Positions 8,173-51,101 are shown, counted from the stretch's first letter. The stretch is DNA of 64,000 nucleotides from Dictyostelium discoideum (GCA_000004695.1 CM000152.2:832001-896000), one strand, 5' to 3'. Notes: a model not told the origin generated them from the letters alone. Numbers and translations: made by a program.

Positions 8173-8228
8173 AAAAACTAATATTTTTATTTTTATTTTT
8201 TTTTTTTATTTTTATTTTTATTTTTTAG

Positions 8229-8589: not shown

Positions 8590-9240
<651 letters not shown>

Positions 9241-9373
9241 GGAAGTATTTAAAGAAAAAAAGTAAAAAATTAAGAAAATTTATTTAAGAAATTAAAAGGG
9301 AGATTAAAAGATTTGATGGAAGAAGGAAAGGTGTAAAAAAGAAATTTGGAGATAAAAAAAGGAAAAGGAAAAG

Positions 9374-9406
<33 letters not shown>

Positions 9407-9886
9407 GAAAAGGTTAAAAAGAAAAGAAAAGAGAAAAAGAAAATAAGAAATAGAATAGGAATAAATGAAAAATAAAATTAAAAAGAAAAAAGAAGACAGT
9501 AGAGAAATGAAATAGGATAAAAAAAGAAAAGAAAGAAGAAAAAGAAGAAAATAAAGAATAGGTTTTGGAGGGGAAAAAAAAAGGGAAATGAAAAAAAAAA
9601 TTTGAGAGAAAAAAAAGAGTTGTTCAGATGATAACCAGGGATGGAGTACAGAGGGATAGAGATATTGAGAAATAAAAATAGAGTAGAGAGAGAGAGAGAG
9701 AGATAGGGAGGAATAAGGATTGGGTGGAGAAAAGTAGGAAATGATGGAAAAAGAATAAGATAAAGAGAGTATAGATAGAGGATAGGAATAGAAAATAAAG
9801 GATAGGTTAGAGGTCGAATAGAAGAAAGAGGTTGGGAAATTTTGAATAATAAAAGAAACTCCTATTCTATAAAACTTATTTATTTT

Positions 9887-9918
<32 letters not shown>

Positions 9919-31832: not shown

Positions 31833-32413
31833 ATGAATAAAATTTTATCATTGGTTTTATTTGCTTCAGTTTTGGGTAAATAAAAACCTATGTGAAACTA
31901 CAAATTGTTTTCAAAATAAAATTAAAGAAACATGGTCTTTGACCAGAAAACCAAGATGGAAGTTATCCTTCATTTTGTTAAGGCCCATCATTTAATGCTA
32001 AAGATATTGAAAATCTAAATGATCAATTAGAAGTTGATTGAATTTCCCTAACAGAAACAAATGAAAATATTTGGTCAAGTGAGTTTTCAAAACAAGGCAC
32101 ATGTGCAATTGAAAGCGATAGTTTAGTTAATGGTACATTTTCTTATTTCCAAGCAGGAGTAAATTTACATCAAAAATTAAATTTAACCCAAGCTTTGGAA
32201 AATGAAAATATTTATCCATCTTCAAAATTAATCTCTGCATCAAGTATTGCTAATGCTTTCAAAAATCAATTCTGTGGTAACCAGGAATGGGATGTGAACA
32301 TTCTAAAATTTCCACTATTGCTATGTGTATTACTAAAGATCTCTCACTAATGGATTACCCAGATTTACATGGTTGGTCTTGTGATGGTGATGTTATACTT
32401 CCATCAAGTTATT
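31833..32413 (+). pseudogene. RNase T2-family ribonuclease pseudogene
   Basis: An ATG plus signal peptide (MNKILSLVLFASVLGK) runs straight into a stop. The rest shifts by one frame and reads KLKKHGL*PENQDGSYPSFC*...VD*ISL...IWSSEFSKQGTCA, which recalls CAS I (HGLWP) and CAS II (W.HEW.KHGTC). Both conserved Trp codons are TGA, and the CAS II His residues are replaced by S and Q. Confidence 0.6.
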
Positions 32414-33176
32414 AAATATTTCTTAAAAAGTAAAAATTAAAAAATTAAATCTTTTTTTTTTTTTAAATTAATTTATCTATATCAAAATTTTTAAATTTCA
32501 AATCATATTATACTTTTTTAAAAAAAAAAAAAATTTAAAAATATATTAAATTAAACAAAACATAAAAAAGTGAATATTTAAAATAATGGAAAATAATTAA
32601 AAAATATTTATTTGTGAACTACCACTATTTTTAACTTTACAAAATTTAAAAATATCTATCATAAATATTAAATAGAAAGATCCTTAATTAAAACTTTTTA
32701 TTTTATTTTTTTACAAAAATTAAATACCATTTCTTAAAATTAATTATTCAAAAATACAATTTTTTACCATTATTTAATTTTTAAAAAAAATCTGAAATTA
32801 TTGAAAGACTGATATTTTAATGTATAGAAAAAAATACCAAATAATATCTTACAAAATTAAAATGAATGGGGTAAAAAACAAAAAAAAATTGTGGTTAAAT
32901 ATAAATTGGATACCACTTTTAATTATTGGAATTTTAAACAAATAACAAAAATAATAATAATATTTATTTAAATAATTTTTTAAATATTTATATATATAAA
33001 ACAATTAAGCATATCTTTAAAAAAAAATAGTTTTTTTTTTTAAAAGATTTTAATTAATAATACTGGTAATAAGATAAAATTAATTTTTGCTTTGACTTAT
33101 TAATTGTATAAATAACTAATAAAAAATATATATTTAGGGAAATAATAATTATTAAAAATTATTTAAAAAATACAAA

Positions 33177-33611
33177 ATGAAATATTTAATTACAGTTTTA
33201 TTACTATTATTTGTTGTTAGCCTTGGTTCTTCTTATCAATGTGGTTATTATTCATGTACACCTGGTCATACTTGTACAAATAGTGACGGTGAATTTAAAT
33301 GTGTATACAATAAAGATGAATTAATTATTTCCCAAATTGTTACAAATAGTTGGTATGATCCTACTAATGGTGTAAGTGTTCAAGTTTTAGCAAATGTTAT
33401 TAATCATACACATCGTACTATAAAAAATGTAATTATTGCATCTGATGTGAAATTGAACAATCATCAAATTTGGGGTGCTAAAATAAATGGTTTTTTAATT
33501 GATTTTCCTGATTATGTTACAATTGCACCAGGTAAAAACTATACATTTGGTTATATTAGTTATGGAGTTAATGCTGCTCATCTTTGGGTCCAACGTGTAA
33601 ACAGTGTTTAA
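33177..33611 (+). CDS. Small secreted Cys-rich protein, paralogue family member 1 (most divergent)
   Basis: ATG, a signal peptide MKYLITVLLLLFVVSLGSS, then YQCG.Y.C.PGHTC...FKCVY and the shared C-terminal motif QIWGA..NGF...IAPGK.Y.FGYI....AAHLWVQ. Confidence 0.7.
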   Translation: MKYLITVLLLLFVVSLGSSYQCGYYSCTPGHTCTNSDGEFKCVYNKDELIISQIVTNSWYDPTNGVSVQVLANVINHTHRTIKNVIIASDVKLNNHQIWGAKINGFLIDFPDYVTIAPGKNYTFGYISYGVNAAHLWVQRVNSV

Positions 33612-34012
33612 ACATTTTTATTTAAATTATAAAATAAACTCATTATTAGTATATGTTTGTTAATAAAACTTATTACCTCGTGAGTAATTATTCATTTATT
33701 ATTAAAATAAAAACAAGTTTATATTCTCCAATACTATCTAAATTTATTTTTATTTTTTTTTACAAAAAATAAAATAAAAAAAAAAAAAAAAAAAAAAAAC
33801 TGTGGTTGTATAAGATTTAATAGATATTTGTGTATTTATATTATTTTTTATTGCATTTGACTAAACTTTATTTAATTAAAAAAAAAAAAAAAATAAAAAA
33901 AAATAAAAAATGGAAATTAAAAGAAGTATAAAACTATAATTTTCTTTTCTTAAATTTTACATTAACCATTAAATTCAATATTTTTTGTATAAACAAAAAT
34001 AGTAAAAGAAAA

Positions 34013-34453
34013 ATGAAATATTTAATTGCAATTTTATTAGCATTATTAGCTATTAGTGTTACTTCTGCTCATTACCAATGTGGTAGATATGCTTGTTTAC
34101 CAGGTCATACTTGTATTTGTGATAATGGTGTTTTCAAATGTGTTTATGTTTGTGATGAATTGATTATCACTCAAACTGTAACCGAAAGTTGGGTTGACGG
34201 TGCTGATGGTCCAAGTGTTAAAGTTGAAGTTGAAGCATATAATCATACACCACATACTATTAAAGATATTGTTATTGCCACTGATGCAAAATTAAATGCT
34301 GGTCAAATTTGGGGTGCTCAACTAAATGGTTTCTTTTTGAATATGGCTAGTTATGTTTCAATTGCTCCAGGTCAAACTCACAAATTTGGTTATATCAACA
34401 AAGGTGATCATGCTGCTCGTCTCTGGGTTCAAAACATTTATATCTCAAAATAG
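34013..34453 (+). CDS. Small secreted Cys-rich protein, paralogue family member 2
   Basis: A 146-aa protein, MKYLIAILLALLAISVTSAHYQCGRYACLPGHTCICDNGVFKCVYVCDEL... It is 80-90% identical to the two minus-strand copies at 48882 and 49959. Confidence 0.8.
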   Translation: MKYLIAILLALLAISVTSAHYQCGRYACLPGHTCICDNGVFKCVYVCDELIITQTVTESWVDGADGPSVKVEVEAYNHTPHTIKDIVIATDAKLNAGQIWGAQLNGFFLNMASYVSIAPGQTHKFGYINKGDHAARLWVQNIYISK

Positions 34454-34713
34454 AGATATAAATACTAAACATTATGACAAAATCAATTTAAAAAATAAAA
34501 AAAACATATTTTTTTAAAAGGTTTATTAATAAAACTTGGATTTGGATTTATTATTTATTATTATTATTTTATAATCGAGACACATTTATTAAAGGTTGGT
34601 TACGTTTTGATTTTAATGTTTTGTTTTGTTTTGTTGTTGTTTTTATAATTTATTTAAAGATATATATATACATTCCTAAAGTTTTTTTTTTTTTTTTTTT
34701 TTTTTTAATTTTA

Positions 34714-35618
34714 TCATTCATCATTATGATATTCTCTTAAAACTTTATGAAGATTAGAATTTTTTGATAATAATTTATAACCTCTATTTAATTCAGAGAT
34801 GATAATGGAAAGATTTGGCCTATTGACAACCCTAGCTAAATTATGAGTTGTTTCAAAAGGATCTTCAATACTGAACCAATAATGACTTTTCTTTGCGATT
34901 GATTCCCAAGTTTTTGAGGATTTTTGAATTGGACTACCAGTACGAATTGAGACTACTTGATTCATGAAACTGAATTCTCTTGAGTAAGTTTGAAAGAAAT
35001 GAAAGACCAAAGAACCCAAAGTCTCTTTATTGTCACTACCAAATCCAACCAATTTACTAATGTCATTATAATATTTACAGTTGAAGCCATCGACCATAAC
35101 ATCGGGTAATAGGTCACCATACTCCTTACCATTGATAAGCTTTGGACCATTTGCCAACTCTTGTAAACATGGTAATATTGGTGGTTGACGAGTTTGAAGA
35201 AAACTAATTACCAAATTAATGTAAGCATACGATGACAATGTGCCCAACGAAGGTTCATTGATCTTTCTTCTCTTTGCCCATCTTTTTACAACATAAACCA
35301 ATGGTTTCATTCTTTCATCGATCATTGAATAATCTTGAACCAATCTAGTGTTATAGATTGCCAATCTATTGTTCATACAAATATCACATGATAAACCAGT
35401 GTTTGGATCCTTAAATTTAACGATTGGTACACGTGCTGTTGGAATTGCCAATATCTTTTGAAATCCATTAATCTTTAACATCTCTGCCAATCTCTCTATA
35501 ATTACATCGGATGTACCCTCTGATGATTGATCAATCACCATACAAATGTCAATATCACCATTCTTTAATGACATACCATTTGCACTTGATCCAAATAAAT
35601 GTAATTTAACTCCTGAAT
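34714..35618 (-). CDS. Non-canonical poly(A) polymerase (Cid1/GLD-2 family), exon 2/2 (catalytic and PAP-associated domains)
   Basis: Acceptor aaatttag|ATTCAGG. It encodes NSGVKLHLFGSSANGMSLKNGDIDICMVI (a Pol-beta NTase hG[GS] ... D.D motif). The central domain has a third Asp, and the PAP/OAS1 substrate-binding region follows (...YAYINLVISFLQ...). Confidence 0.75.
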
Positions 35619-35712
35619 CTAAATTTTATTTATTTATTTATTTATTTATAAATAACATTGTTAATATATTTATAAATGGTAAATTATTATTATTTTAAAG
35701 AATCAAACTTAC

Positions 35713-36773
35713 TTGGAAATATCTTTGAAACTAAATTTTGTAAACGAATTAATAAACTTTTGCCTCTATTTTCTTCACATTTTGATTTTTCAAAGATATC
35801 AAAAGCATGACTTGTAATTTCTTTTATTTTTTCTTCAGATGGTTTTGGTAAGAGTGGTCTCTTCTTTTCAATCTTTTTCTTTGCTTTTTCAATCTCTTCT
35901 TCATCATCCTCTTCGCCAACTGTATTTATTGATTCTTCAGTTGTTGTTGTTGTTGTTGTTGTTGTTGTTGAAGTTTGAGTAGAGGTTGCATCTTGGTGTT
36001 GATGATAATCATTACTATCAAAATTAATGTTTACATTACCATCTGCTGAATCATCCAATAATGAATTAATTCTGTCATGAATTGATAATGATTCCAATGA
36101 CAATGATTCAACCATACCATTATTTTCACCACTATTACTAATATTACCATTATTATTATTATTGTTATTCATCATCATCATCATTAACATTTGATTATGC
36201 TGTTGTTGGCTATGATTCAAGAAATTATTATTATTACCGCTATTTATTAAACCATTCTCTAATTTAAATAATATACTTTCTTCGTTATTATTATTATTAT
36301 TATTATTATTGTTGTTGTTGTTATTAAAATTTTGATGATCAAAGTTTGGCTGATATTGTTGATGTTGTGCCTGTTGGAGAATATTCATATTAAGTGGGTG
36401 TGGATGCTGTTGGTGATGTAACATTTGCATATGTTGCTGCTGTTGTTGCTGTTGCTGTTGTTGGAGTAACAATTGCTGCTGTTGTTGTTGTTGCTGTTGT
36501 TGCTGCTGCTGTTGGAATTGAATAAATTGCATAATATTTGGTGGTTGACCTGCCCCTCCATTAAAGTTTCCAAATGGTATTGTTTGATGATTATTTTTTG
36601 ATGGTGTATTATAACCCATTGAAGATGGAGGTGGTGGTGGTGAAGAAGGAGGTATACCACCACCACCCATTTGATGTGATGGTGATAATGGTCCATCATA
36701 ATTATGATATCCATTGGCACCATTTGAAAATAGATGATTTTGATCAATTTCATCATTATTACTATTATTATTA

Positions 36774-36827
<54 letters not shown>

Positions 36828-37728
36828 GTGGCACCTCTTAAAGAACCAAACATATCTTCAAATTGATTTGAACCAACACCTATAGAACCATTTAAAAATG
36901 AAGCACTATTACTATTGATATTTTGTTGTAATTGTTGTAATGGTGATAATTGAGTAATGTCATTGTTTCCATTGAATAATTGATGATGGTGATGGTGATG
37001 ATGAATATTAGTACCTAATAAATTAGCACCTCCAAACATTGTTGATGACCAATCTGAAAAGAATGGATAATTAAAAAATGAACCTTGGTCATTAACCCCA
37101 ATACTACCATTATTGAGTTCATTGTTATTTTTATTATTAACATTATTATTATTATTATTATTATTATTAGCACCATTGTTAATACCATTACCATTGAATT
37201 GAAATTCTGGTAATAATGATCTTTGTTGTTGTTGTTGCTGCTGTAACTGTCTTTGTTGTAATAAAAATAATTGCTGTTGCTGTTGTTGTTGTTGCTGCTG
37301 TTGAATCATTTGCATATGTTGTAAATGTTGGTATTGCATGAAATCAAGATTATTGGATTGTTCAATTCCATCTTCATATATATAATTACCATCATCATTA
37401 ATATTATTATTATTATTATTTTCATTATCGAATTGATTATTTATATTACTATTACCACCATTAATAGTATTATTATTAATATTATTATTATTATTATTAA
37501 TATTATTATTATTATTATTGTTGTTGTTGTTGTTGTTGTTGTTACTAACTATATGACCCACCTCATTACCATTGTTAGTGTTAATATTGTTATTAATATT
37601 ATTAATATTATTATTATTAATATTATTATTATTAATATTATTATTATTATTTTGAATGTGGTGATCTTTTTTAGTTTTTGGTTGGTATGTAAAGTTGCTA
37701 TTGTTTTGGGTATTATTGTGATGGTGGC

Positions 37729-37791
<63 letters not shown>

Positions 37792-38080
37792 TATTATTAT
37801 TATTATTATTACTGTTGTTGTTATTATTATTATTGTTATTATTATTATTATTGTTATTATGATGGTGATGATAATGATGATTGTGGTGATTATTCTTTTT
37901 ATGGTGGGAATTATTATTACCATTATTGATGTCATTTGGATTGTCTACACCATTTTGGTTATTTTTATTGTTGTTATTATTGTTATTATTGTTATTGTTA
38001 TTATTATTATTTTTATAGTGGTGATGCTTTTTATTATTGTGAACAACACCACTGCCACCAGAACTATTAGGATTACTCAT
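35713..38080 (-). CDS. Non-canonical poly(A) polymerase / terminal nucleotidyltransferase (Cid1/GLD-2/TUTase family), exon 1/2 (~790-aa N/Q/H-rich low-complexity N-terminus)
   Basis: ATG at 38080 on the minus strand. It contains huge poly-N, poly-Q and His-rich tracts and ends ...LIRLQNLVSKIFP in phase 1 at a GTAAGT donor. Confidence 0.7.
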
Positions 38081-38118
38081 TTTTTGTTCTGGCTGGGTCT
38101 TTTTTTTTCTTTTTGAAT

Positions 38119-38157
<39 letters not shown>

Positions 38158-38474
38158 TTTTTTATTATTAGATTATTATTATTCTTTTTATTCTTTTTAT
38201 TCTTTTCTATTTTTATAAAAAAAAAAAAAAAAAAGTGTTAGAATATTATTTTGATATTACACTCTGAATTAAAATTTGAAAAATGAGCCCCTTATTCAAA
38301 TGTGAAATTGTAGTTTAAGTTCACAAAGTAAAAAATAAAGCTTACATAATTATGTAAAATAAAAATGTGAATTTTGGGTATAATTAAAAAATTTGAAAAA
38401 AATAAAAAAAAAAAAAAATATAAAAAAAAAAAAATGAAAAATTTTTTTTTTATATTTTTTTTTTATTTTAATTT

Positions 38475-38523
<49 letters not shown>

Positions 38524-38596
38524 GATTAATCCTTTCCAAAATATCTAAAAAAAAACAAAAAAAAAAAAAAAAAATTTTAAAAAAATATAAAATAAA

Positions 38597-38655
38597 ATGA
38601 GCGATTCCGAAGATGTAGTAAAAGTTGAAAGTTGTGTTTTGGGTACCAAAGGGCA
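38597..38655 (+). CDS. METTL10/Efm4-like (EEF1A lysine) class I methyltransferase, exon 1/3
   Basis: ATG at 38597 encodes MSDSEDVVKVESCVLGTKG. The donor is CA|GTATGT in phase 2. Confidence 0.65.
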
Positions 38656-38707
38656 GTATGTATAATAATTTTAAAATATTTCAAATAATTTCAAAATTTT
38701 TACTAAT

Positions 38708-38747
<40 letters not shown>

Positions 38748-38749
<2 letters not shown>

Positions 38750-38934
38750 GGGATTCAGCATATGATAGAGAATTAGATTGTTTTGAAGAAACAGGTGATG
38801 TTGGTGAGATTTGGTTTGGTAAATCATGTTTAAAAACAATGTGTAAAGGAGTTTCACAATTATCAGAATTAAATAAAGAAACTTCAAAAATTATAGATTT
38901 AGGTTGTGGTAATGGAATGACTTTAATTGAATTA
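38748..38934 (+). CDS. METTL10/Efm4-like methyltransferase, exon 2/3
   Basis: Acceptor aaaaag|ttggg. It encodes [25 protein letters not shown]...IIDLGCGNGMTLIEL (SAM-binding motif I) and ends at a GTAAGT donor. Confidence 0.7.
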
Positions 38935-39003
38935 GTAAGTAATAATAAAAATTAATTTTTATTAATTAATTAATTAACAAATTTTATTTTTATTTTATTT
39001 TAG

Positions 39004-39423
39004 TCAAAATTAGGATTTAAAAAATTAGATGGTTCAGATTATTCAGATAAAGGTATTGAATTAGCAAAGAGAATTATGGAACAAGAAGGATTTAATCATA
39101 TAAATTATTTTGTAGATGATATTACAGATTCAAAGATTGAACAATATGTTTATGATGCAGTTTTAGATAAAGGTACATTCGATGCAATTGCATTATCAGA
39201 GGATAGAGATAGAATGAAACAATTATATAAACAACATGTTGAACATATCTTAAAACCTGATGGTATTTTCGTAATTACAAGTTGTAATTACACTGAAAAT
39301 GAATTAAAACTTTATTATACTTCACCACAATTCGAATTTATTAAAAATATTCAATATCCAGTTTTTAGTTTTGGTGGTTCAAAAGGTACAACTCAAACAA
39401 CTTTAATTTTTAAAAAGAAATAA
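39004..39423 (+). CDS. METTL10/Efm4-like methyltransferase, exon 3/3
   Basis: Acceptor ttttag|tcaaaa. It encodes SKLGFKKLDGSDYSDKGIELA...DKGTFDAIALS...ITSCN... This is collinear with human METTL10 and ends in a stop at 39421-39423. Confidence 0.75.
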   Translation, partial: SKLGFKKLDGSDYSDKGIELAKRIMEQEGFNHINYFVDDITDSKIEQYVYDAVLDKGTFDAIALSEDRDRMKQLYKQHVEHILKPDGIFVITSCNYTENELKLYYTSPQFEFIKNIQYPVFSFGGSKGTTQTTLIFKKK

Positions 39424-39696
39424 GAAATAAAAAATAAAATAAAAATCATTTGAAAAAAAAATAAAAAAAAAAAATTATTTTTTATACTTTTTTTTTTAAT
39501 TATAATATTATAATTTAAAAATTTTAATTGGATAAAATTAAAATAAAAAAAAATTGTTTAGGAAAAAATAATTATTGAAAATAAATTATTAAAATAAAAA
39601 ATTGTTTAGGAAATAATAAATTAAAATTAAATTAACAATTACCAAATTAACAAAATAAATAAATGAAAAAAAAATAAATGTGAAATAAATAATAAT

Positions 39697-39733
<37 letters not shown>

Positions 39734-39774
39734 ATAATAAAAAAAGTTTATTAATAAATTAAAGATTAATTAAT

Positions 39775-40149
39775 TTAGTTTTTGGCTTCTTTTTTATCCA
39801 TGATGACTTCAACATCAACGCCAGCTTCGATTGAGATGGTGTTCATTTCCTTGACGAAATCTTGGGTGGATAAGATGTGGATGACACGTTTGTGGATTCT
39901 CATTTCGAAACGATCCCAGGTGTTTGTACCTTCACCACATGGACTTTTACGGGTGGTGATTTTTAAGACTTTGTTTGGGATACGGATTGGACCCTTAGCC
40001 TTGACTTTCTTGTTTTTAGCAAGAGTGATGATATCAGCGCAAACTTTTTCAAGAGATTTTGGGTTTCTTGAGGTTAAGGTGATACTGATTTTGTTGACAG
40101 CTGGGGCTGCAACGGTTTCTTCGGTTTTTTTGATTGGGTTCATTGACAT
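39775..40149 (-). CDS. rps20: 40S ribosomal protein S20 (uS10)
   Basis: A single exon of 124 aa. The sequence ...[46 protein letters not shown]... is diagnostic of eukaryotic S20. Confidence 0.9.
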
Positions 40150-40673
40150 TGTGTAAGTTTATAAAGACTCGCAAGAGGTGGGATGATACAAAGAGAAAAA
40201 AAAAAAAAAAAAAAAAATTCAAAAAAAAAAAAAAAAAATTCCCGCACACCCAGCCCCAATCCTCTAAAAAAAAAATAAAAAAAAAATAAAAAAAAAATAA
40301 AAAAAAAATAAAATTTACAAAACCATCAAAATTTTTTTTATTTTATTTACATAACTTTTACATAAAATTATGTAAAAAAAAAAAAAAAAAAAAGAAAAAA
40401 TAATTATAAAAAAAAAAAAAAAAAAAAACAAATAAATAAATAAAAAGTTATTTAACTCTAAGTATTATTATTATATAATTTTTTTTTTTCTTTATTTTTT
40501 TAATAACAATAATAATTTTTATTCAATTTCAACAAGCTCAAATTTTTTTTTTTTTTTTTTTTTTTTCCAGGTTTTCTTTTTTTTTAATTATTAATCTTTT
40601 TTTTTTTTTTTTAAAAATCTTATTTTATTTTATTTTATTTTATTTTTCTTTCTTTTTTTTTTTTTTGTTATTA

Positions 40674-40939
40674 TTATTGATTAAATGTTTGAGTACCTTT
40701 ACTGATTAAAATAGGTGGCACTTTCATGAAATGATTATATTCGGCAGCAACTTGAGAGAATATGATTTTTTCATCAACAATCTTTTCTTCATATTTTTCA
40801 TCAAGGTAATGGAGAGAATAAGATACAGCAACAGCAATCATTGTATAAATTACAAATTTATCAAATTCAGGACCTGCTATTGACATAATTAAAACATGTA
40901 GTGGAGAGAATAATGTAAATAAAACTCTTGATGGGAATT
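40674..40939 (-). CDS. Multi-pass membrane protein, exon 2/2
   Basis: Acceptor aaaaag|AATTCC in matching phase. It encodes KFPSRVLFTLFSPLHVLIMSIAGPEFDKFVIYTMIAVAVSYSLHYLDEKYEEK...*. Confidence 0.55.
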
Positions 40940-41043
40940 CTTTTTTATTATTGTTATTTTTAATTTAAAAAAAAAATGAAAAGTATTAGTAATTTGATTA
41001 TTATTATTATTATTATTAGTTATTTTTTATTAATTACACTTAC

Positions 41044-41637
41044 TTGGATCCCATGATTTTAAAACTATAACATTATCAATTGAACCAGATGGAGATTCGA
41101 TTTGGGTGATTGACATATTTGGAGATTTAAAAGTTGTACCTTCATAACGATAGAGATAAGAGGTTTTAGTTGTATTGAAATAAATAAAAGTATTGGCTAT
41201 ACTGAATAAGAGTAAAAGAAAAGCAAAGAAAGTATTCAAGAGGTCAATTGAGTAGCCTAATAATAAAAGATTCAACAATAGAGCCAATCCATAGATTGAG
41301 CTCTTATAATATTGACTATGATGAAATGTTGAAATGTTTTCTTGAATTTCGTCAAACTTATCCAATGGATAATTAAAAACATCCTTTATCTTCTCACTAA
41401 CTGGTTTCTTTCTCATTTTTGCTGGTGTATTTGGTGCATTACTATTAACACTTCCATTTGGTGTATTTGGAATATGTAAATAGTTACTATTGGTACCATT
41501 AAATGATTTTTTAAAATTTGATTCAGGTGTTGCTAGAATATTATTATTTGTTGTTGTAGCTCGGAATTTACTATTAGTACTTGATATTAATGATTCATTT
41601 GGATAGTCTATCATTTCATCATCTTCTCTATTATTTA

Positions 41638-41671
<34 letters not shown>

Positions 41672-42217
41672 GACAGTTGGTTGTGATACAGGTTCTTGTG
41701 AAGGTTGTGTTGTGGGTTGTGGCTGACTAAAGAATTTATTAAAAAAGTTACTATTGGAGGTAAGAGTTGGTATTGATGGGGCTGGTGTAGGTTGTGGAGG
41801 TTGTGGTTGTGGTTGTGGTTGTGGTTGTGGTTGTGGTTGTGGTTGTGGTTGTGGTTGTGGTCTTTGTGTTTGTAATTGTGATTGTGAGAGGGGAGGTTTG
41901 TTATTATAGTTTTGACTTGTGTCTCCAGATATGGAGTATCTAAGTGATGAACGTTTTAATGTTGGTGTTGTTTCATTTAAAAATGCTGGGTTGTTATTGT
42001 TTATACTAGTATTAAAATTTATTGGATTTGTACGTTCATTGTTGCTGTAAAAGGAGGATGGTTGAATTGATTGTCTACCTGGTGTTCTTGATGGTGGTCT
42101 CTTTTGAGGATTATTACCACCAATACCTATACTATTTGTGTTGTTTCCGCTCAAACTAAATCTAGGTCTATTATTATTACTATTACTATTACTATTACTA
42201 CCAAAATTATTATCCAT
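41044..42217 (-). CDS. Multi-pass membrane protein with N-terminal Asn/Pro-Gln-rich low-complexity region, exon 1/2
   Basis: ATG at 42217 on the minus strand. It contains a (PQ)10 tract and poly-N, then hydrophobic helices (GLALLLNLLLLGYSIDLLNTFFAFLLLLFSIANTFIYF). The donor is A|GTAAGT. Confidence 0.6.
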
Positions 42218-42644
42218 TATTATCTTTTAAAAGATTGGTGTGTGCGCATAAATTTTATTTTTTGTATCTTTTTTTTTTTTTTTTTTATTTTTTATTTTTT
42301 TTATTTTTTTTTATTTTTCAAATTTAAAAAAAAATAGGGGGTGAAAAATGAAAAAAAAAATGAGCGGGAAATTTTGCTTTTATTAATTTTTTATAATTTT
42401 GCTTTCATTAATTTTTTTTTTTTTTATTTATTTAATTTTTATTTTTTATTTTTTTATTTTTTTAATTTTTTTTTTTTTTTTTTTTAAAATTTTCAAAATT
42501 GAAAGTTTTTTTTTTTTTTTTTTAATTTTTTCAAATTTTTTATTTTTTTCAAAACTCACTCCACTTTCTTAACACATTTTATATTTCATCTTTTTTTTTT
42601 TTTTTTTTTTTATCTATCATTTTTTTACTAATCAAATAATAAAA

Positions 42645-42675
<31 letters not shown>

Positions 42676-42944
42676 TAAACACACCCCACATAGAGATATA
42701 AAATTAGAAAAATTCGAAAAAAGAGTAAAATTTTAAAACCCAAAAAAAAAAAAAAAAAAAAAAAAGAAATATAAAAATCTTACAAATAAAAAAAACACTA
42801 AATATCTGAATATTGTTGATCAATTTACAAAATAATACACACAAATAAAAACACACTGACCCACCCCCGCACTAAATATCACAATTGCTCCCCACACAAT
42901 CACGCACAATAACCGTATCACACGATAACACATAAAAGAGATTA

Positions 42945-42963
42945 ATGAAGGTGTTTGTCAAAG
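42945..42963 (+). CDS. Candidate 19-nt first exon of the SR-like RRM/CCHC gene (MKVFVK + G)
   Basis: ATGAAGGTGTTTGTCAAAG|GTAATG. In phase 1 it joins exon 2 to give MKVFVKGISEKTNKRDIEEYF, which restores a canonical RRM RNP-2/loop/helix-1 spacing (compare SRSF3 [20 protein letters not shown]). This requires an intron of about 1 kb. The model is tentative. Confidence 0.35.
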
Positions 42964-43379
42964 GTAATGAAAGAAAAAGAAAACTCGAAACCCTACCTGA
43001 CCTGCTTACCTACCTGACTCTTATTAAGAACCTACCTTTAACCATATAAATAATAATAAAAAAAAAAAAAAATTAAAAAAAAAAAAATTAAAAAAAATAA
43101 TAATAATGCCGACGATAATAATAATAGTTCCAACAACAACAAAAACAACAACAACAACAATAACAAAAGTAATAAATAGATAATACTTATTATAAAAATA
43201 AAAATAATAATAATAGTTAATAATAATAAAAACAAATAGTAATAGTAATAGTAATACTAATAGATGATACATCAATCAACACTATCCAATATTTAAAATA
43301 TAGTATTAATAAATTTTATTTTACGGTAATATTATGGAAAATGGATTGGTTAATGGATAATATCAACTATAGGCATAAA

Positions 43380-43407
43380 TAATAATAATAACAAAAATAA
43401 AAATAAA

Positions 43408-43498
<91 letters not shown>

Positions 43499-43760
43499 TA
43501 ACACCAATAGTAACAATAACAATAACAAATAATAATAATAAATAATAATAATAAATAATAATAATAATAATAATAATAATTACTAATATATGGATAAATG
43601 GATATGGTATGGACTTGGATGTCCATGGATATGGATGGAAATGGATAAATGGAAATGGATATTTTTTTATTTATTATTGTTTTGGTGGAAATTGGAATTG
43701 GATTTGGATTGGAATTGGATTGGAATTGGAATGAATGTTATTTTCTGTTTTACTTTTTTT
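43380..43760 (+). repeat. Compound minisatellite block: (AAT)n, then GGATATGGATGGAAATGGATAAATGG-type and (TGGAATTGGATT)n arrays
   Basis: Successive short-unit tandem arrays lie in non-coding DNA upstream of the SR-like gene body. Confidence 0.85.
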
Positions 43761-44006
43761 TTTTTTTTTTTTGTTTTTTGGGATTGTTTTTTTTTGGTGT
43801 AGTACATATTGGGATTGGAATCACATTCGCACCAAAAATAACAACAATCATTTTTTATCAAATACTGAATTAAGCATCAAAATATTAATATTATTTACTT
43901 TTCAAATTTAATTACTATTACATAAAATTTATTTACTTTTTTTATAATAAATAATAATAATAAATAATAATAAATATTAAATAATAATAATAATAATAAT
44001 ATGAAG

Positions 44007-44931
44007 GTATTTCTGAAAAAACAAATAAAAGAGATATTGAAGAATACTTTAACAAGATTGGTCCTGTGTTAAACGTTCAAACTGGTTCTTCTGATTTTGC
44101 ATTTGTTGATATGCAGTATGAGAGAGACGGTCAAGAATTACTAGGATTACAAGAAATTATAATAAGCGGAAAACGTGTTAAAGTTGAAAAAGCCAAAACA
44201 AACGAAGAACGAGAAATTCATAGGGAGAAATATAGAGAAAGATTTATAAATAATCATCATCATCATCATCATCATCATCACAACAACAATAATAACAATA
44301 ACAACAACAACGACAACAATAATATCACAAACTTAAACAATAATCATTACAGTAACAACAACAACAACAACAACAACAACAACGATAATAACAATAACGA
44401 TAATAACAATAACGATATGAATAATATGAGCTATAATAATAATAACAATAATAATAATGGAATGAGAGGTGAAAGCCAAGGTTATAGAGATCAAGGTGGT
44501 TACAGAGATAGTCATCGTGATAGAGATAGAGACTCTTATGGTGGTAGAGAGGGCAGCCATAGAGATGGTGGTAGATCAAACTACGAAGATAGGGACAGAG
44601 GTTACAATAACAACAGAGACCATCATCATGGTGGTGGCGGTGGTCACAGAGATCATAGAGACAGAGATTATGGTCATAGAGATGGTGGTTATGGTAATAG
44701 AGGTGGCGATAGAGACCATCGTGGCTCTGATAGAGGTGATCGTTATGGTAACGATAGAGACAGATTTAGATCAGGTGGCGGCAGAGATGGCGGCTACAAC
44801 AGAGGTGGCAATGACCGAGAAAGATTTAGATCTGACAGAAGAGACAATGGTGGTCCACCAATGAGCAAGTTTGATTCCATCTGTTACAATTGCAGAAAAT
44901 CTGGTCATTATGCTAGAGATTGTCAAGAAAG
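44007..44931 (+). CDS. SRSF3/SRSF7-like splicing-factor-type protein (RRM + CCHC zinc knuckle + RD/RG-rich), main exon
   Basis: The frame opens at 44000 and the only upstream AG is at 44005-44006. It encodes the RRM remainder (...DFAFVDMQYERDGQELLGLQEIIISGKRVKVEKA), then poly-H, poly-N and RDRD/RGG repeats, then a CCHC knuckle (CYNCRKSGHYARDC). The donor is AG|GTAAAT at 44932. Confidence 0.7.
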
Positions 44932-44957
44932 GTAAATATAAAATTTTCTAATGGGTT

Positions 44958-45011
<54 letters not shown>

Positions 45012-45099
45012 GTTAACAAATAACACCCAACTTATACTAATATTTATTTATTCATTATTTCTCTTTACTTTTTTTTTTTTTTCTCCCTCCCAAATAAAG

Positions 45100-45535
45100 A
45101 CCAAGAAATCCAAATTATGCTGATACTAAAGGTACTTTAAAGGATAGTGGTAGATTCCACCCTTATACCAATGATAGAAGAGGTAATAACTTCTCTCCAC
45201 GTAGAAGATATGATGACGATCGTAGAAGTGGCGATCATCAAAGAGAAAGAGATTTCGATAATAACGATAGTGGTAGAGATAGAGATAACTATAGCAGCAG
45301 CAGCAACAGTAATAATAATAATGGTAGTAGCAGCAGTGGTAACACTAGAAAGGATGACTCTCCAAATGACGTTGTAAGTGAAAGAGAAAGAGACAGAGAT
45401 AATTCTCCAAGAGATTATAACAGTAGTAATAACGCAAATAACAACGTTGACATTCCATCTCCAACTCAAGCCAACATTGAAAATATTTCAAAAAATAACA
45501 GTGATTCCAATGACGATCAAAGAGATAGAGATTAA
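45100..45535 (+). CDS. SRSF3/7-like protein, last exon (RD/RS-like tail)
   Basis: Acceptor aaataaag|acc in phase 2. It encodes RPRNPNYADTKG...RRRYDDDRRSGDHQRERDFD...DDQRDRD*. Confidence 0.65.
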
Positions 45536-45673
45536 TTAAAATAATCTTCTTATCTCTCAATTAATAATTATTATAATAATAATAACAACAATTCAAAAAT
45601 TAAAATTTCATTTTAATTTTTATTTTTGCTTCATATTAAAAATGATTTAAAAATAAAAACATAAATAAATATA

Positions 45674-45713
<40 letters not shown>

Positions 45714-45847
45714 AAATTCCAGGTGTTGGTTTTATTGAAAATAAGATAATTTATTTACATTCACATCTCTCAAAAAAAGATAAAGAATATTGAGAGAAAA
45801 CTTTTTTTTTTTTAAAAACCAAGAATATTGAGATTTATTTTTTTTTT

Positions 45848-48319
45848 TTACAAAACTTGTAAGTTTGAATTTTCCTGATAATCTTTGTAAAAATCTAACA
45901 TTTCTTGGGTGATACCTTTTTTAACATTACCAATTGCAGAGATGAAATGAGACATATTAATTTCTTTTGCATTAATATCTTCTTTCATTGCAGCAATTGA
46001 TGCCTCACGACAAATTGAAGTTACTTCAGCACCACTGTAACCATCGGTTAGAATTGAAAGTTGATTAATGTCAATGTCTGAAGAGTGAGGAACCTTTTTT
46101 AAATGAATATTGAATATTTCTTTTCTTGCATCTAAATCTGGTGGTGAAATATAGAGAATTCTATCTATTCTACCGGCACGTAATATAGCTTTATCGATGA
46201 TATCAGGTCTATTGGTGGCACCAATGATAGTTACATTTGTCAAAGGTTGGATACCATCCATTTCGGTTAAAAGTTGAGATACCACACGTTCAACGGCACC
46301 ACTACCTTCACCACTTCTACTGATGGCCAAGCCATCGATTTCATCGAAAAATAGAATGGATGGTGAGTTTTGGCGTGCTTTTTTGAAGATATCACGTACT
46401 GCTCTTTCAGATTCACCAACCCATTTACTTAAAAGTTCAGGTCCTTTTACTGCAATGAAATTTAAACCAGATTCAGTTGCTAAAGCTTTGGCTAATAAAG
46501 TTTTACTACAACCTGGTGGACCATATAATAGAATACCTTTGGGTGGTTTGATACCCATACGAATAAATGATTGTGGATATTTTAATGGCCATTCAATGGC
46601 TTCTTTTAACTTTTGCTTAATATGCTCTTGTCCACCAATATCTCCCCAAAATACTTTAGGTATTTCAACTACAACTTCTCTCATTGATGATGGTTTAACT
46701 TGATTCAATGCCAATAACATATCATTCATTGATAATTTAATTAATGATAATAAATTTTGAAGATTTTCTTCTTGTTTTTCTTCTTTTCCTTTTTCTTCTT
46801 TTTCAATATTAATTGATTGAAATAATTTTTGATTTTCATTTTTAATACGATTAAAACATTTTAATGATGCTTCTTTACAAAGCGATTCAATATCAGCACC
46901 AACGAAACCATGTGTTTTTGAGGCAATCATTGCTATCTCTTGTGATGTTAATTGATTTGGAATTTTTGAAAGGAAAATATTTAAAATTTGTTCTCTACCT
47001 TGTTGATTTGGAATTGATATTTCAATTTCATTATCAAATCTTCCAGGTCTTCTTAATGCTGAATCAATACTATCAGGTCTATTAGTGCAACCGATTACTA
47101 TAACTTTATCACCACCACAATTACCATTACCATTACCATTATCACCACCACCACCATCATTTTGATCACTTGTTGATACAACACCATCCATTAATGTTAA
47201 TAAACTACCAACTATACGTTTTTCAACTTCTGAACTATTATCTTCACGTTTTGGGCATAATGCATCCAATTCATCAATGAAAATGATTGAAGGTGATTTT
47301 TGTGCAGCATCTTTAAATATTTTTTGTAAAGTTTTTTCAGTCATACCATAGAATTTGTCAAGGATATCAGCACCATTGATTGTAAATAATGTTGCATTGG
47401 TTTGAGTTGCAACAATTCTTGCCAATAATGTTTTACCTGTACCTGGTGGACCATATAATAAAATACCTTTTGGTGGTTTAACTCCAAATGATTTTAATAA
47501 ATCTAATTTATAAAATGATAGATCAATTAATTCTCTAATTTGTTTAACTTGTAAATCCAAACCACCAATTGATTGAAAATTTAAATTTATATTTTTATTA
47601 TTATCAATTTTATTATTACTATTATTATTATTATTATTATTACTATTTATTGTGGATTCACAAATTAAAGTTGATTGTAAATTTGAATTAATTAATTTTA
47701 TTTTTGTTGATTCACAAATTCTAAAAATTGATTTAATAAATTCATTATCAATATTATCTTTTTTTTCTTTTAAACTTAATTTATTGAAATCTAAACTATT
47801 TATATCACAATCATCATTATTATTGCTATTATTATTACTACTATTATTTTCAATTTTATTAATTGATAATTTTAAAATTTTAAATTTTATAATATTATTG
47901 CTTAGATGAATTGTAAAGGAATTTTGAGGAATGAAATATCTACCAATGATTTGTGATAAAATTAAAGTTTCAAGCATACCAAATGATTGAAGTGATTGTA
48001 CATATTGTTGTTGTGATATTGTTTCACATTGAATTTCTAAATATCTACAATCTAATTTCGGATATATATTTGAAATTAAAAGATTGTTTGATACGGTATT
48101 TACAGATTGAAATGGTGTTTTAAATAAATAAACATAGTCACCAATTTTAACATTACAATTCTCTCTTTGAATTGAATCTAATTGAATATGTTGTGTTGAT
48201 AGTTTTTGTAATGGCCATGCTGTCATTATTGAACAGTTACTACCACTACTATTTATATCTTTATTATTACAATTAAAATAATTCCATGGTATTTCTGAAT
48301 TATTATTATTATTGTTTTC

Positions 48320-48370
<51 letters not shown>

Positions 48371-48508
48371 GTTTACTGGAACTATGTAAATTATATCACC
48401 TATTGTAATTTCATTATTTTGCATACACCTAATACTTATATACCCAACTGACGTTTTTTTAATTTGTTTATACGGTTGATCTTCAACCAATAGTTTAATT
48501 AACGACAT
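45848..48508 (-). CDS. Double AAA+ ATPase of the Cdc48 clade (Afg2/SPATA5- or NVL-like)
   Basis: A single 886-aa ORF with ATG at 48508 on the minus strand. It has a Cdc48-N-like start and two AAA cassettes. D1 has GPPGTGKT, Walker B IIFIDELD and an SRH. D2 has GPPGCSKT, ILFFDEIDGL and ATNRPD..D.A..R.GR. Confidence 0.8.
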
Positions 48509-48881
48509 TGTTATTTTAAAAAATGAGTTAAAAAATGATTTTCGTGTTTTTTTTTTTTTTTTTTTTGGGTGTGGAAAAAAAAAAAATAAAATAAAAAAAA
48601 TAAAAAAAAAAAGTGGAATTTTATTTTTAGATTCATTATTTAAATGAAAATTCCATGTTTAAAATTTTATCTCAGTTTTGTTAGTGAAATAAAATTCCAA
48701 AAAATTAAATTACATTATTTTTAATTTTTGTGTATTTTTTAATTTAATTAAATAATTAATAATAATAATAATAATAATTATTAATTATTAATTTTTTAAC
48801 AAACTGGAATGATTTTTAAAATATAAAACAAAATATTTTGTTTTTATTTAATTTATTTGTAATTTAAAAAATTAAAAAATT

Positions 48882-49322
48882 CTATGCCGAGATAAAAATA
48901 TTTTGAACCCAGAGACGAGCAGCATGATCACCTTTGTTGATATAACCAAAGTGATAACTTTTACCAGGAGCAATTGAAACATAACTAGCCATATTAATAT
49001 AGAAACCATTTAATTGAGCACCCCAAATTTGACCAGCATTTAACTTAGCATCAGTTGCAATAACAATATCTTTAATTGTACGATGAGTATGATTAATAAC
49101 TTCAACATCAACTTTAACACTTGGACCATCAGCACCGTCAACCCAACGTTCAGTTACAGTTTGAACAATTGTTAATTCTTCACAAACATAAACACATTTG
49201 AAAATACCATTATCACAAATACATGAGTGACCTGGTAAACAAGCATATTTACCACATTGGAAATTTGCAGAAGTAACACTAATAGCTAACAAAGCTAATA
49301 AAATTGCAATTAAATATTTCAT
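48882..49322 (-). CDS. Small secreted Cys-rich protein, paralogue family member 3
   Basis: A 146-aa protein, MKYLIAILLALLAISVTSANFQCGKYACLPGHSCICDNGIFKCVYVCEEL..., in minus orientation. Confidence 0.8.
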   Translation of the reverse strand: MKYLIAILLALLAISVTSANFQCGKYACLPGHSCICDNGIFKCVYVCEELTIVQTVTERWVDGADGPSVKVDVEVINHTHRTIKDIVIATDAKLNAGQIWGAQLNGFYINMASYVSIAPGKSYHFGYINKGDHAARLWVQNIFISA

Positions 49323-49847
49323 TTTTTTTCCCTTATTAAAAAATATTATATTTTAATTATTTATTTTGAATGAAATTTTATATTTAAATTTTTAATTTAT
49401 ACAATTTTTTTAAAATAGAAAAAATAATACTTTAATTAATTCATTTATAAACAAAAAATTAATAATTGAACCCCAATAATTAATCTATAAAAAAAAAATT
49501 AAAGTTTTTAGCAAAAAATACAAAACATTCTACAAACAATTTAATGATATGATAAAATATGGTATCATGATAATAAATGATACCATATTTTATCATATTA
49601 TAAGATAGTGAAACCTCCCAATCTCATATATTCCTATCATACAAAAATTTTAAAAAAATAATTTTAATTTTCAAATACAAAACTAAACAAAGATTAAATT
49701 TATTAATTTCAAAATTCACATGAAAAAAAAGAAATTCAAAAAAAAAAATTTTATTATGAATATAACAAAATATTTATTTTTTATAGTTTTATTAATTTTT
49801 AAAAATAAAAAAATTAAAATTTTCCTTTGTTTTAAATTTAGAAGTTT

Positions 49848-49884
<37 letters not shown>

Positions 49885-49958
49885 TTTTTTTTTCTAAACA
49901 ATAATTTTAATATTTGTTATATTTTAAAATTTAAATTAATAAAATTTAAAATATTTAT

Positions 49959-50399
49959 TTATTTTGAGATATAAATGTTTTGAACCCAGAGATGAGCAGC
50001 ATGATCACCTTTGTTGATATAACCAAAATTGTGAGTTTTGTATGGAGCAATTGAAACATAACTAGCCATATTTAATAAGAAACCATTTAATTGAGCACCC
50101 CAAATTTGACCAACATTTAATTTTACATCAGTGGCAATAACAATATCTTTAATAGTATGTGGAGAATGATTAAAAGCTGTAACATTAACTTTAACACTTG
50201 GACCTTCAGCACCGTCAACCCAACTATCAGTAATAGTTTGAGTGATCACTAATTCTTCACAAACATAAACACATCTATAAACTCCATTATCACAAATACA
50301 AGTATGACCTGGTAAACAAGCATATCTACCACATTGGTAATGAGCAGAAGTAACACTAACAGCTAATAAAGCTAATAAAATTGCAATCAAATATTTCAT
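49959..50399 (-). CDS. Small secreted Cys-rich protein, paralogue family member 4
   Basis: A 146-aa protein, MKYLIAILLALLAVSVTSAHYQCGRYACLPGHTCICDNGVYRCVYVCEEL..., in minus orientation and tandem with member 3. Confidence 0.8.
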   Translation of the reverse strand: MKYLIAILLALLAVSVTSAHYQCGRYACLPGHTCICDNGVYRCVYVCEELVITQTITDSWVDGAEGPSVKVNVTAFNHSPHTIKDIVIATDVKLNVGQIWGAQLNGFLLNMASYVSIAPYKTHNFGYINKGDHAAHLWVQNIYISK

Positions 50400-51101
50400 T
50401 TTCCTTTTCTTATTTATTTTATTAATTAATTAAAAAAAAAAATAAAAAAAAAAAACTTCTTTCTTTTTATAAGAACCTTTTTCAAAAAAAAAAAAAATAA
50501 AAAAAAAAATAAAATTGGTACGACATATAAATATAAAATAATATAATAAAGCCCCATAATTTATCTATATAAAATATACAAAGTTATATGTATTAATTTG
50601 TGTTTTTATTAAGATTCTTTAATCTATTAAATATAGATTATCTTTTATTTTTTTCACCCCTCTCTTTGTATTTCCATCATGAATTTTAACCATATATATA
50701 TATATATAATTAAAACAAGCAAAAATGAAAAATAATAAAAACAATGAAAAAAAAAAAAAAAAAAAAGTGTGGTGCTATAATAATAAATACAAGATGATGA
50801 ATGATTATCAATTAAATCTTATAAAAATATAAACAAATATTAAATAAATAAACAAAACACCAACAGTTTACAAAACAATACAAAGCTTTCTTTTTTTTAA
50901 TTTTATTTTATTTTATATTTTATTTATATAATTTAAAAAAAAAAAAAAGATATACCAAGAATTTAATTTTTTTTTAATTTTTTTTTTTTTTTTTTATTAA
51001 TGGTTGATTTATTTACCATAATAGTACTATTTATTTATTTATATTTACAAAAAAAAAGGTATATTTATTTCTTAATAGAAATATATAATACCATTGCTAT
51101 T

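Follow-up and report, generated by a model that had tools for sequence, protein, structure and literature searches.

We consider it likely that four small genes of Dictyostelium discoideum AX4 encode secreted, cellulose-binding CBM49 proteins of the stalk wall, that their arrangement as two inverted tandem pairs is old, and that three of them have been homogenised by gene conversion. The window analysed is a stretch of 64,000 nucleotides, and all positions are counted from its first letter. The reading draws on family membership, predicted fold, extent of homology, synteny and silent-site distances, all worked out here, and on expression taken from published tables. All four proteins are annotated as belonging to a large, already known Dictyostelium family of wall proteins that bind cellulose through CBM49. 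The finding is thus real but ordinary, since it concerns a known family in an old layout that gene conversion has apparently kept similar. A literature search found none of the four genes named in the main text of published papers.

The four genes and the age of their layout

The four open reading frames that the original prediction had placed here are all present and intact, each at the position and on the strand claimed for it, and the sequence motifs quoted for them are found in their translations. On the plus strand lie m1 (DDB_G0278421, 33177–33611, 144 aa), the diverged member, which was matched to a public protein, and m2 (DDB_G0278423, 34013–34453, 146 aa). On the minus strand lie m3, the inner right copy (DDB_G0278437, 48882–49322, 146 aa), and m4, the outer right copy (DDB_G0278439, 49959–50399, 146 aa). 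Protein identities by tblastn are 87% for m2–m4, 85.5% for m2–m3 and 78.6% for m3–m4, making m4 the closest paralogue of m2, and 54–57% for m1 against the other three; the E-values among the four, 1e-44 to 1e-82, are far beyond chance. The earlier estimate of about 80–90% identity among m2, m3 and m4, with m1 diverged, therefore agrees with the 79–87% and 54–57% found. At the DNA level, m2, m3 and m4 are 86–92% identical. No further CBM49-type copy was found by tblastn within the 64-kb window. A fifth close paralogue, DDB_G0278399, lies outside it.

The left pair points to the right and the right pair to the left, so that both converge on a block of 14.4 kb (34714–48508) that holds unrelated genes of housekeeping type, without homology to the CBM49 genes. 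The genes claimed for this block are upheld by Pfam matches: a Cid1-type poly(A) polymerase with PAP_assoc and MTPAP-like domains, a methyltransferase, ribosomal protein S20 (rpS20; Ribosomal_S10), a zf-CCHC protein, and an AAA ATPase that is SPATA5/AFG2-like by Pfam and by its homologues. The exception is a 395-aa open reading frame that matched nothing in Pfam; its counterpart from another strain has a DUF2418 domain. The order of the block genes is the same in five other genomes. Immediately upstream of m1, on the plus strand at 31891–32415, the predicted RNase T2 pseudogene proved real, with three in-frame stops, a frameshift and no recognisable 5′ part. It shares 81.8% nucleotide identity with the intact gene of D. 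citrinum, and in D. citrinum, D. firmibasis and D. dimigraforme the orthologue is an intact gene of 215–224 aa.

For comparison with relatives, we call the positions of m1 and m2 L1 and L2, and those of m3 and m4 Rin and Rout (right inner and right outer). The L1 and L2 pair is present in all four of the close relatives examined. D. dimigraforme and D. cf. discoideum have the same layout with orthologous flanks, Rin and Rout being at orthologous positions in both; D. citrinum has it with a single right-hand copy, the segment of m4 having been lost there with a deletion of about 1.1 kb. Since the layout recurs with orthologous flanks in D. dimigraforme, D. cf. discoideum and D. citrinum, it is old. 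The age of the right pair is a lower bound, the right-hand side of D. firmibasis being outside the comparison; among the homologues listed for the AAA ATPase there was no D. firmibasis orthologue. In D. purpureum, the housekeeping block is present with no CBM49 gene nearby. Among the six genomes compared, none showed the intervening block inverted.

Species-specific dispersed duplicates were also observed, a D. firmibasis copy on another chromosome and a D. dimigraforme copy on another contig, and the twin 147-aa genes of D. firmibasis are likewise species-specific duplicates. Among other assemblies labelled D. discoideum, the CBM49 genes differ by 3–4%, and raised within-species diversity was considered. 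Intergenic DNA is 81–86% identical in these assemblies and the whole region is comparably diverged; therefore, the divergence of the CBM49 genes is not locus-specific, and the idea was rejected.

Silent sites and gene conversion

That gene conversion has acted between the pairs, as had been suggested, has good comparative support from silent-site distances and from near-identity in D. dimigraforme. In that species, the two inner copies, L2 and Rin, have 6 differences in 441 nucleotides (dS 0.038), whereas dS between these copies and their AX4 orthologues is 0.33–0.37 (L2 versus m2, 0.373). The differences are distributed sharply, two in positions 1–434 of the coding sequence and then four in positions 435–438, and outside the coding sequence the similarity fades within about 25 nt. 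Since D. dimigraforme L2, Rin and Rout have flanks orthologous to those of m2, m3 and m4, the sites are shared by descent. The D. firmibasis twins show 99.3% identity over a stretch of 453 nt that matches the coding sequence in extent. Within AX4, dS among the paralogues m2, m3 and m4 is 0.148–0.266 (m2–m4, 0.148), which is exceeded by the D. discoideum/D. citrinum orthologue values of 0.367–0.487, bearing in mind that codon bias in an AT-rich genome could distort dS. Within-genome paralogues are thus closer at silent sites than positional orthologues, and the tracts of near-identity are sharply bounded.

We propose that short-tract conversion, limited roughly to the transcribed unit, has repeatedly homogenised m2, m3 and m4, and that it would account for the silent-site pattern of AX4. 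The dN/dS values among the three, about 0.32–0.46, suggest moderate purifying selection on their coding sequences. In the pattern of copy-unique sites, no significant run marks a conversion tract or mosaic within AX4 m2, and the longest identical run of m2 and m4, 76 nt, is marginally unusual (p about 0.06 by a rough estimate). In the gene tree, m1 is the outgroup to m2, m3 and m4, and where the m2, m3 and m4 types branch more deeply, neighbour-joining support is weak, at 40–76%.

Alternatively, there was no conversion, and independent single-gene duplications in each lineage placed new copies at the same positions or replaced older ones. This account, which we find unlikely, could appeal to the dispersed species-specific duplicates of D. 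firmibasis and D. dimigraforme and to the rapid gene gain and loss for which the family is known (PMC9117722). Yet the coding sequences group by species at sites whose orthologous flanks show them to be shared by descent, and the near-identity of both D. dimigraforme L2/Rin and the D. firmibasis twins stops between a few and some tens of nucleotides from the ends of the coding sequence. Such sharp bounds have the look of conversion tracts, whereas an independent insertion would have to replace exactly the resident gene. Closeness of paralogues within a species and sharp tracts are equally the marks of concerted evolution of inverted or tandem paralogues by interlocus conversion in general, and nothing mechanistically distinct is seen here.

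The CBM49 domain and expression in the stalk

The β-sandwich-like C-terminal tail, which had been likened to a carbohydrate-binding module, is CBM49 (PF09478) by Pfam match in all four proteins. The scores are 47.3–50.2 bits against a cut-off of 23.4, with E-values of 3e-13 to 3e-12 (m1, 3.4e-13 and 50.1 bits; m3, 3.2e-13; m4, 2.7e-12), and each match spans profile positions 2 or 3 to 79 of 80. Distant homologues, full-length proteins of about 150 aa, match CBM49 too. The claim of a paralogous family with a signal-like N-terminus was borne out as well: after MK comes a run of about 15 hydrophobic residues, then TSA ahead of HY. In m2, on the plus strand, the signal-like segment comprises residues 1–20 (34013–34072), the six-cysteine region residues 22–47 (34076–34153) and CBM49 residues 52–129 (34166–34399). 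The N-terminal region has six cysteines in m2, m3 and m4 and four in m1, and an N-H-T/S sequon is conserved among the homologues. Searches of Pfam and the PDB for a known family of the cysteine region gave non-significant matches only, the best being TILa (E 0.018), EGF_CA (E 0.79) and LDL-receptor/EGF chains in the PDB (E 1–5). The N-terminal six-cysteine module is conserved over about 40 clusters of proteins of about 150 aa.

The AlphaFold2 model (pLDDT 81.8) predicts a helix at residues 2–17, small hairpins at 21–46 and a β-sandwich at 50–144. The helix stands apart, with a low-confidence break at residues 18–20, and the cysteine region is modelled at moderate confidence (pLDDT 57–74). The predicted fold is a CBM2-like β-sandwich, or β-jelly-roll. 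W60, W100 and Y114 do not vary among 18 homologues, which have W or Y at position 138. In number and spacing, the conserved aromatics resemble those of Luke-2 and CBM2a (PMC11423589). Mutation has shown that CBM49-type folds need three aligned aromatic residues to bind cellulose (PMC11423589), and single-CBM49 proteins with cellulose-binding ability number in the dozens in D. discoideum (PMC6541295).

On this reading, a cleaved signal peptide would be followed in each protein by a short, probably disulfide-rich module and then by one CBM49 β-sandwich. Most probably, stalk cells in terminal differentiation secrete the protein, which, by extrapolation from the family, would bind crystalline cellulose in their walls or in the stalk tube by way of a putative strip formed by the conserved aromatics. 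The candidate contact residues are W60, W100 and Y114, with W138 conserved too, and the cysteine module might add stability or serve in cross-linking.

Several known systems can be compared. The D. discoideum matrix proteins St15/staA, staB, the sheathins EcmC and EcmD, and CelB are described by Wang et al. (2001), whom PMC6541295 and PMC12821622 cite, as secreted proteins with one CBM49; m1–m4, at about 15 kDa, are like them in domain and size. The Acanthamoeba Luke lectins are likewise secreted amoebozoan wall proteins with CBM49-type domains; they go to the cellulose wall, and their aromatic triads are needed for binding, as mutation showed (PMC11423589, PMC6541295). They have two or three β-jelly-roll domains with Ser-rich spacers and lack the six-cysteine module, whereas the Dictyostelium proteins are single-domain. 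Sequence identity to bacterial CBM2 (C. fimi Cex CBM2a, 1exg; C. cellulovorans EngD CBM2, 3ndy_E) is only 19–22%, and no PDB chain gave a significant sequence match to the CBM49 proteins, so that membership of CBM2 is not claimed. The CBM49 of tomato SlCel9C1/SlGH9C belongs to the same Pfam family, PF09478, of which m1–m4 match 78–79 of the 80 profile positions. That module is reportedly able to bind crystalline cellulose, a result attributed to Urbanowicz et al. (2007). It is a C-terminal appendage of a GH9 enzyme, whereas m1–m4 are free-standing, with a small cysteine module ahead and no catalytic domain.

Expression was taken from the published RNA-seq tables of Kin et al. 2018 (PMC6198379, supplement 5). 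In stalk, m2, m3 and m4 reach 240, 4671 and 1732 TPM, respectively, compared with about 0–2.5 TPM in spore, cup and vegetative cells; the three genes come on at 20–24 h. In contrast, m1 is on from 12–16 h, with 48 TPM in prespore, 116 in prestalk and 0.27 in stalk cells. Late, stalk-specific expression is therefore found for m2, m3 and m4, which form a co-regulated set, and not for m1, which would be an older paralogue with an earlier, non-stalk pattern. In the proteome of PMC12821622, all four proteins occur essentially only in fruiting bodies; m3 was detected there in both replicates, with a trace at culmination in one.

A CBM49-like fold could, in principle, be used for another ligand or role, such as a different glycan, a bacterial lectin or signalling. 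The cellulose binding of these four proteins is drawn by analogy from the family, the Acanthamoeba CBM49 lectins bind chitin too (PMC6541295), and the cysteine module is without an assigned family. We nevertheless regard this as quite improbable, because expression is confined to stalk cells in terminal differentiation and to fruiting bodies, the places in which the cellulose wall forms, because the aromatics characteristic of cellulose-binding CBM2 and CBM49 domains have been conserved, and because other single-CBM49 proteins of D. discoideum bind cellulose, as PMC6541295 and PMC12821622 relate from Wang et al. (2001).

Extent of the repeated DNA and meaning for the family

By gapped blastn, homology begins about 25–40 nt before the ATG and ends 50–60 nt past the stop of each gene. 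The repeated unit around m2 (33989–34515, plus strand) consists of the coding sequence with about 24 nt upstream and about 50–60 nt downstream, bounds with which the ungapped repeats I1 and I2 agree. The units around m3, which aligns to those of m2, m4 and m1, and around m4 occupy 48827–49362 and 49909–50432 on the minus strand. Identity is 88.5% between the m2 and m4 units (33989–34502 versus 50422–49913), 85.9% between m2 and m3 (34006–34515 versus 49329–48827), 83.6% between m3 and m4 (48832–49359 versus 49909–50432) and 70% between m1 and m3 (33140–33593 versus 49362–48903). Between the spacers, 33612–34012 and 49323–49958, blastn found no homology beyond low-complexity A/T runs. Orthologous intergenic DNA retains 67–86% identity between species and strains.

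The recent inverted segmental duplication of the original prediction is not sustained, given that homology comprises the coding sequence and tens of nucleotides, that the tree is not mirror-symmetric and that the layout is old. Much of what was to count against it was found, namely a known domain, dispersed copies (dozens of CBM49 genes in D. discoideum; PMC6541295, PMC12821622) and flank homology that is essentially absent, although dN/dS is 0.3–0.5 rather than about 1. The layout would therefore not derive from a recent inverted duplication of a pair. That the tandem pair m1–m2 was copied as an inverted block to give m4–m3, with plain divergence thereafter, is scarcely credible: two tandem genes per strand in mirror-image orientation and the 86–92% DNA identity of m2, m3 and m4 would suit it, but neither the inter-gene spacers nor the neighbouring DNA show the homology that orthologous intergenic DNA keeps, m1 is an outgroup and m2 is closest to m4 where mirror symmetry pairs m1 with m4 and m2 with m3, and the layout is older than the split from D. 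dimigraforme.

A bolder reading, which we hold to be doubtful, is that the inverted CBM49 copies are a recombinationally active cassette and that the six-cysteine module is a new wall cross-linking domain. If the former were true, conversion limited to the transcribed unit would keep the stalk trio m2, m3 and m4 functionally interchangeable, and the 14-kb block could occasionally invert; if the latter, the disappearance of exactly two of the cysteines from the L1 (m1) lineage would be the sign of a switch in function and expression.

On the preferred reading of an old layout homogenised by conversion, practical value is small and no new question is opened, but the results may be of use in choosing stalk markers and in studying the evolution of the wall-protein family. 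By analogy with that family, four “hypothetical proteins” gain a putative role as cellulose-binding proteins of the stalk wall, and m1 is set apart from the co-regulated stalk trio. With one deletion, one likely pseudogenisation and several dispersed copies, the locus would be a clean example of short-tract conversion and gene turnover in a fast-evolving family of social-amoeba matrix proteins.

Four CBM49 genes flanking a gene block

The four paralogues named in the original prediction are all present at the positions and on the strands proposed: m1 (DDB_G0278421, 33177-33611) and m2 (DDB_G0278423, 34013-34453) on the plus strand, and m3 (DDB_G0278437, 48882-49322) and m4 (DDB_G0278439, 49959-50399) on the minus strand. 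Their ORF translations match the public proteins exactly and carry the sequence motifs that had been quoted for them, and an AX4 re-assembly is 100% identical to the region. The two pairs do face each other across a 14.4-kb block, in which Pfam identifies a Cid1-type poly(A) polymerase, a methyltransferase, rpS20, a zf-CCHC protein and an AAA ATPase; the block also contains a 395-aa ORF without a Pfam match, whose counterpart in another strain bears DUF2418. Protein identity is 87% for m2-m4, 85.5% for m2-m3, 78.6% for m3-m4, and 54-57% for m1 against the other three (E-values among the four, 1e-44 to 1e-82). A search across the 64-kb window found no fifth copy of this type.

The window, from Dictyostelium discoideum AX4, is AT-rich (GC 0.14-0.41), and its sole relatively GC-rich stretch (GC 0.41) is occupied by a 1062-aa ORF (13743-16931, plus strand) with a collagen-like Gly-X-Y repeat (Pfam Collagen, E 3.9e-8). 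The 2-kb bin at 8001-10000 has a very strong GC skew (+0.69) and an AT skew of +0.35. A simple repeat with strand bias, or coding sequence of low complexity, is the probable source. The nearest non-dictyostelid relatives of the AAA ATPase (45848-48508, minus strand) are of the SPATA5/AFG2 type, with two AAA domains; the AX4 protein has long poly-Asn insertions, and length ranges from 851 to 942 aa across the Dictyostelium genomes compared.

The guess that the proteins contain a carbohydrate-binding module was right, since all four match Pfam CBM49 (PF09478) over nearly the full profile at 47-50 bits (gathering cut-off, 23.4). A profile search run exhaustively over 1.84 billion representative proteins (E up to 0.001) matched 70 clusters, about 40 of which have this layout over their full length of roughly 150 aa; the members sampled are CBM49 proteins. 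The AlphaFold2 model of m2, built with 18 homologues (pLDDT 81.8), has an N-terminal helix at residues 2-17 and a beta-sandwich at 50-144, while the Cys region, 21-46, forms small hairpins with pLDDT of 57-74. The candidate binding residues W60, W100 and Y114 do not vary among the 18 homologues, which have W or Y at position 138. In the related Luke lectins of Acanthamoeba, alanine mutation has demonstrated that three aromatics in line are required for this fold to bind cellulose, and D. discoideum wall proteins also carry aligned aromatics of this type (PMC11423589). The N-terminal module, C-x4-C-x5-C-x-C-x6-C-x3-C, matched no assigned family. The m1 lineage is missing exactly the fourth and sixth cysteines, Cys36 and Cys47, which suggests, from sequence, that these two may pair with each other.

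Age and turnover of the arrangement

In gapped alignments, the repeated unit reaches only about 25-40 nt beyond the CDS on the upstream side and 50-60 nt on the downstream side. It spans 33989-34502 against 50422-49913 for m2/m4 (88.5%), 34006-34515 against 49329-48827 for m2/m3 (85.9%), 48832-49359 against 49909-50432 for m3/m4 (83.6%), and 33140-33593 against 49362-48903 for m1/m3 (70%). Homology sought in the within-pair spacers and neighbouring genes amounted to nothing in common except A/T runs, unlike orthologous intergenic DNA, where 67-86% identity persists across species and strains. A (G)TATAAA-like motif precedes the ATG of every copy by about 70-88 nt, at approximately 33085-33110, 33925-33945, 49390-49410 and 50470-50480. 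If this motif is a TATA box, the shared upstream homology falls inside the 5′ UTR, and the homologous unit would therefore correspond roughly to the transcribed region.

Let L1, L2, Rin (right inner) and Rout (right outer) denote the positional orthologues of m1, m2, m3 and m4 in sister genomes. The order RNase T2, L1, L2, poly(A) polymerase, methyltransferase, rpS20, 395-aa (DUF2418-type) protein, zf-CCHC, AAA ATPase, Rin, Rout, with orthologous flanks, recurs in two other D. discoideum assemblies, D. cf. discoideum and D. dimigraforme. D. firmibasis, for which the left side of the block was compared, has the left pair. D. purpureum retains the stretch running from the AAA ATPase gene to rpS20, with no CBM49 gene within 10 kb of it. 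This synteny implies that the layout predates the D. dimigraforme split and postdates that of D. purpureum; the four-gene arrangement is not a recent D. discoideum event.

A recent inverted segmental duplication, one of the two mechanisms originally offered, fails on this age, on the spacers and flanks, which lack homology, and on the tree, which is not mirrored. Duplication of a pair in mirror image predicts the groupings m1+m4 and m2+m3; the observed tree has m1 outside the other three and puts m2 nearest to m4.

D. citrinum has both left genes and a single right gene. Set against window 49355-51083, its locus (L004:9336-10001) is missing AX4 positions 49536-50627, which consist of m4 and its proximal flanks, and m3 proximal upstream DNA directly abuts m4 distal upstream DNA. 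About 1.1 kb, with m4 in it, has been cleanly deleted at this junction. In D. cf. discoideum strain ACTFIY, the m2 orthologue (L012:15836-16275, minus strand, protein P0015) is 440 nt long, and a 1-nt deletion causes a frameshift after “...LNGFF”, the annotated product being 132 aa; in a second strain, L1 and L2 are modelled as one fused and degenerate gene of 272 aa. These observations, and the low m2 expression seen in AX4, suggest that the inner copy on the left can be dispensed with or is in decay; an assembly error may also be responsible.

The RNase T2 pseudogene that had been proposed beside the left pair is real: window 31891-32415 contains three in-frame stops and one frameshift, the AX4 re-annotation calls just a 113-aa fragment, and no gene is called at this site in two other D. 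discoideum assemblies. D. citrinum, D. firmibasis and D. dimigraforme all keep an intact orthologue of 215-224 aa, which makes this a recent, lineage-specific loss.

Probable gene conversion, and selection

Gene conversion between the pairs, the other mechanism of the original prediction, is supported by the near-identity of L2 and Rin in D. dimigraforme and the low dS among the AX4 paralogues. In D. dimigraforme, the two genes differ at 6 of 441 nt, with two differences in positions 1-434 and four in 435-438, and flank similarity is gone within tens of nucleotides. Their dS is 0.038, versus 0.33-0.37 to the respective AX4 orthologues, and they are sisters in the tree with 100% bootstrap. The twin 147-aa CBM49 genes of D. 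firmibasis (L002:10001-10444 and 12862-13305), which lie 2.9 kb apart with a 559-aa opposite-strand gene between them, are the closest relatives of DDB_G0278399. They are 99.3% identical across 453 nt coinciding with the CDS, with no homology in the flanks, and are a second case of homogenisation limited to the CDS.

In AX4, dS among m2, m3 and m4 is 0.148-0.266, below the 0.367-0.487 between D. discoideum and D. citrinum orthologues; silent sites are closer among these copies than between the orthologues, although the copies are older than that split. Third-position trees tend toward grouping by species and all-position trees toward grouping by type, with modest support in both. This pattern of silent sites and tracts is characteristic of concerted evolution through conversion of short tracts. 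No fresh conversion tract is left in AX4 m2, m3 and m4. The dN/dS values, 0.32-0.46 among these three, about 0.5 for m1 against them, and for L1 0.18-0.26 between species (D. citrinum, D. dimigraforme, D. firmibasis) and 0.31-0.47 in the closest comparisons, place the four genes under moderate purifying selection.

Expression and what the locus adds

In cell-type RNA-seq, stalk TPM is 240 for m2, 4671 for m3 and 1732 for m4, against about 0-2.5 in spores, cup and vegetative cells, and transcripts first appear at 20-24 h; for DDB_G0278399, a paralogue nearby, the stalk value is 12752 (PMC6198379 supplement 5). m1 is on from 12-16 h, at 48 TPM in prespore, 116 in prestalk and 0.27 in stalk (PMC6198379 supplement 5). 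In a 2026 proteome study, the two clusters of late development together include 30 CBM49 proteins (PMC12821622). The study's fruiting-body data include m1, m3 and m4 in both replicates and m2 in one (supplementary table, PMC12821622), and earlier stages have none of the four save for m3, detected as a trace in one culmination replicate (PMC12821622). m1 differs from the others in sequence, in cysteines (lacking two of six) and in regulation: prestalk and prespore cells both express it and mature stalk has essentially no transcript, yet its protein is found only in fruiting bodies.

The CBM49 family is well known, abundant and already annotated. Many uncharacterised cellulose-binding-domain genes expressed late in stalks, probably stalk-wall builders, have already been remarked upon (PMC6198379), and by published expression data m2, m3 and m4 already belong with the late stalk-specific ones. 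None of the papers searched names any of m1-m4 in its main text. The bracketing of the block arises incidentally from the local turnover of genes in a wall-protein family that evolves fast. The only new points, each modest, are gene conversion acting across 15 kb between inverted copies, the divergent regulation of m1, and the lineage-specific decay of individual copies.
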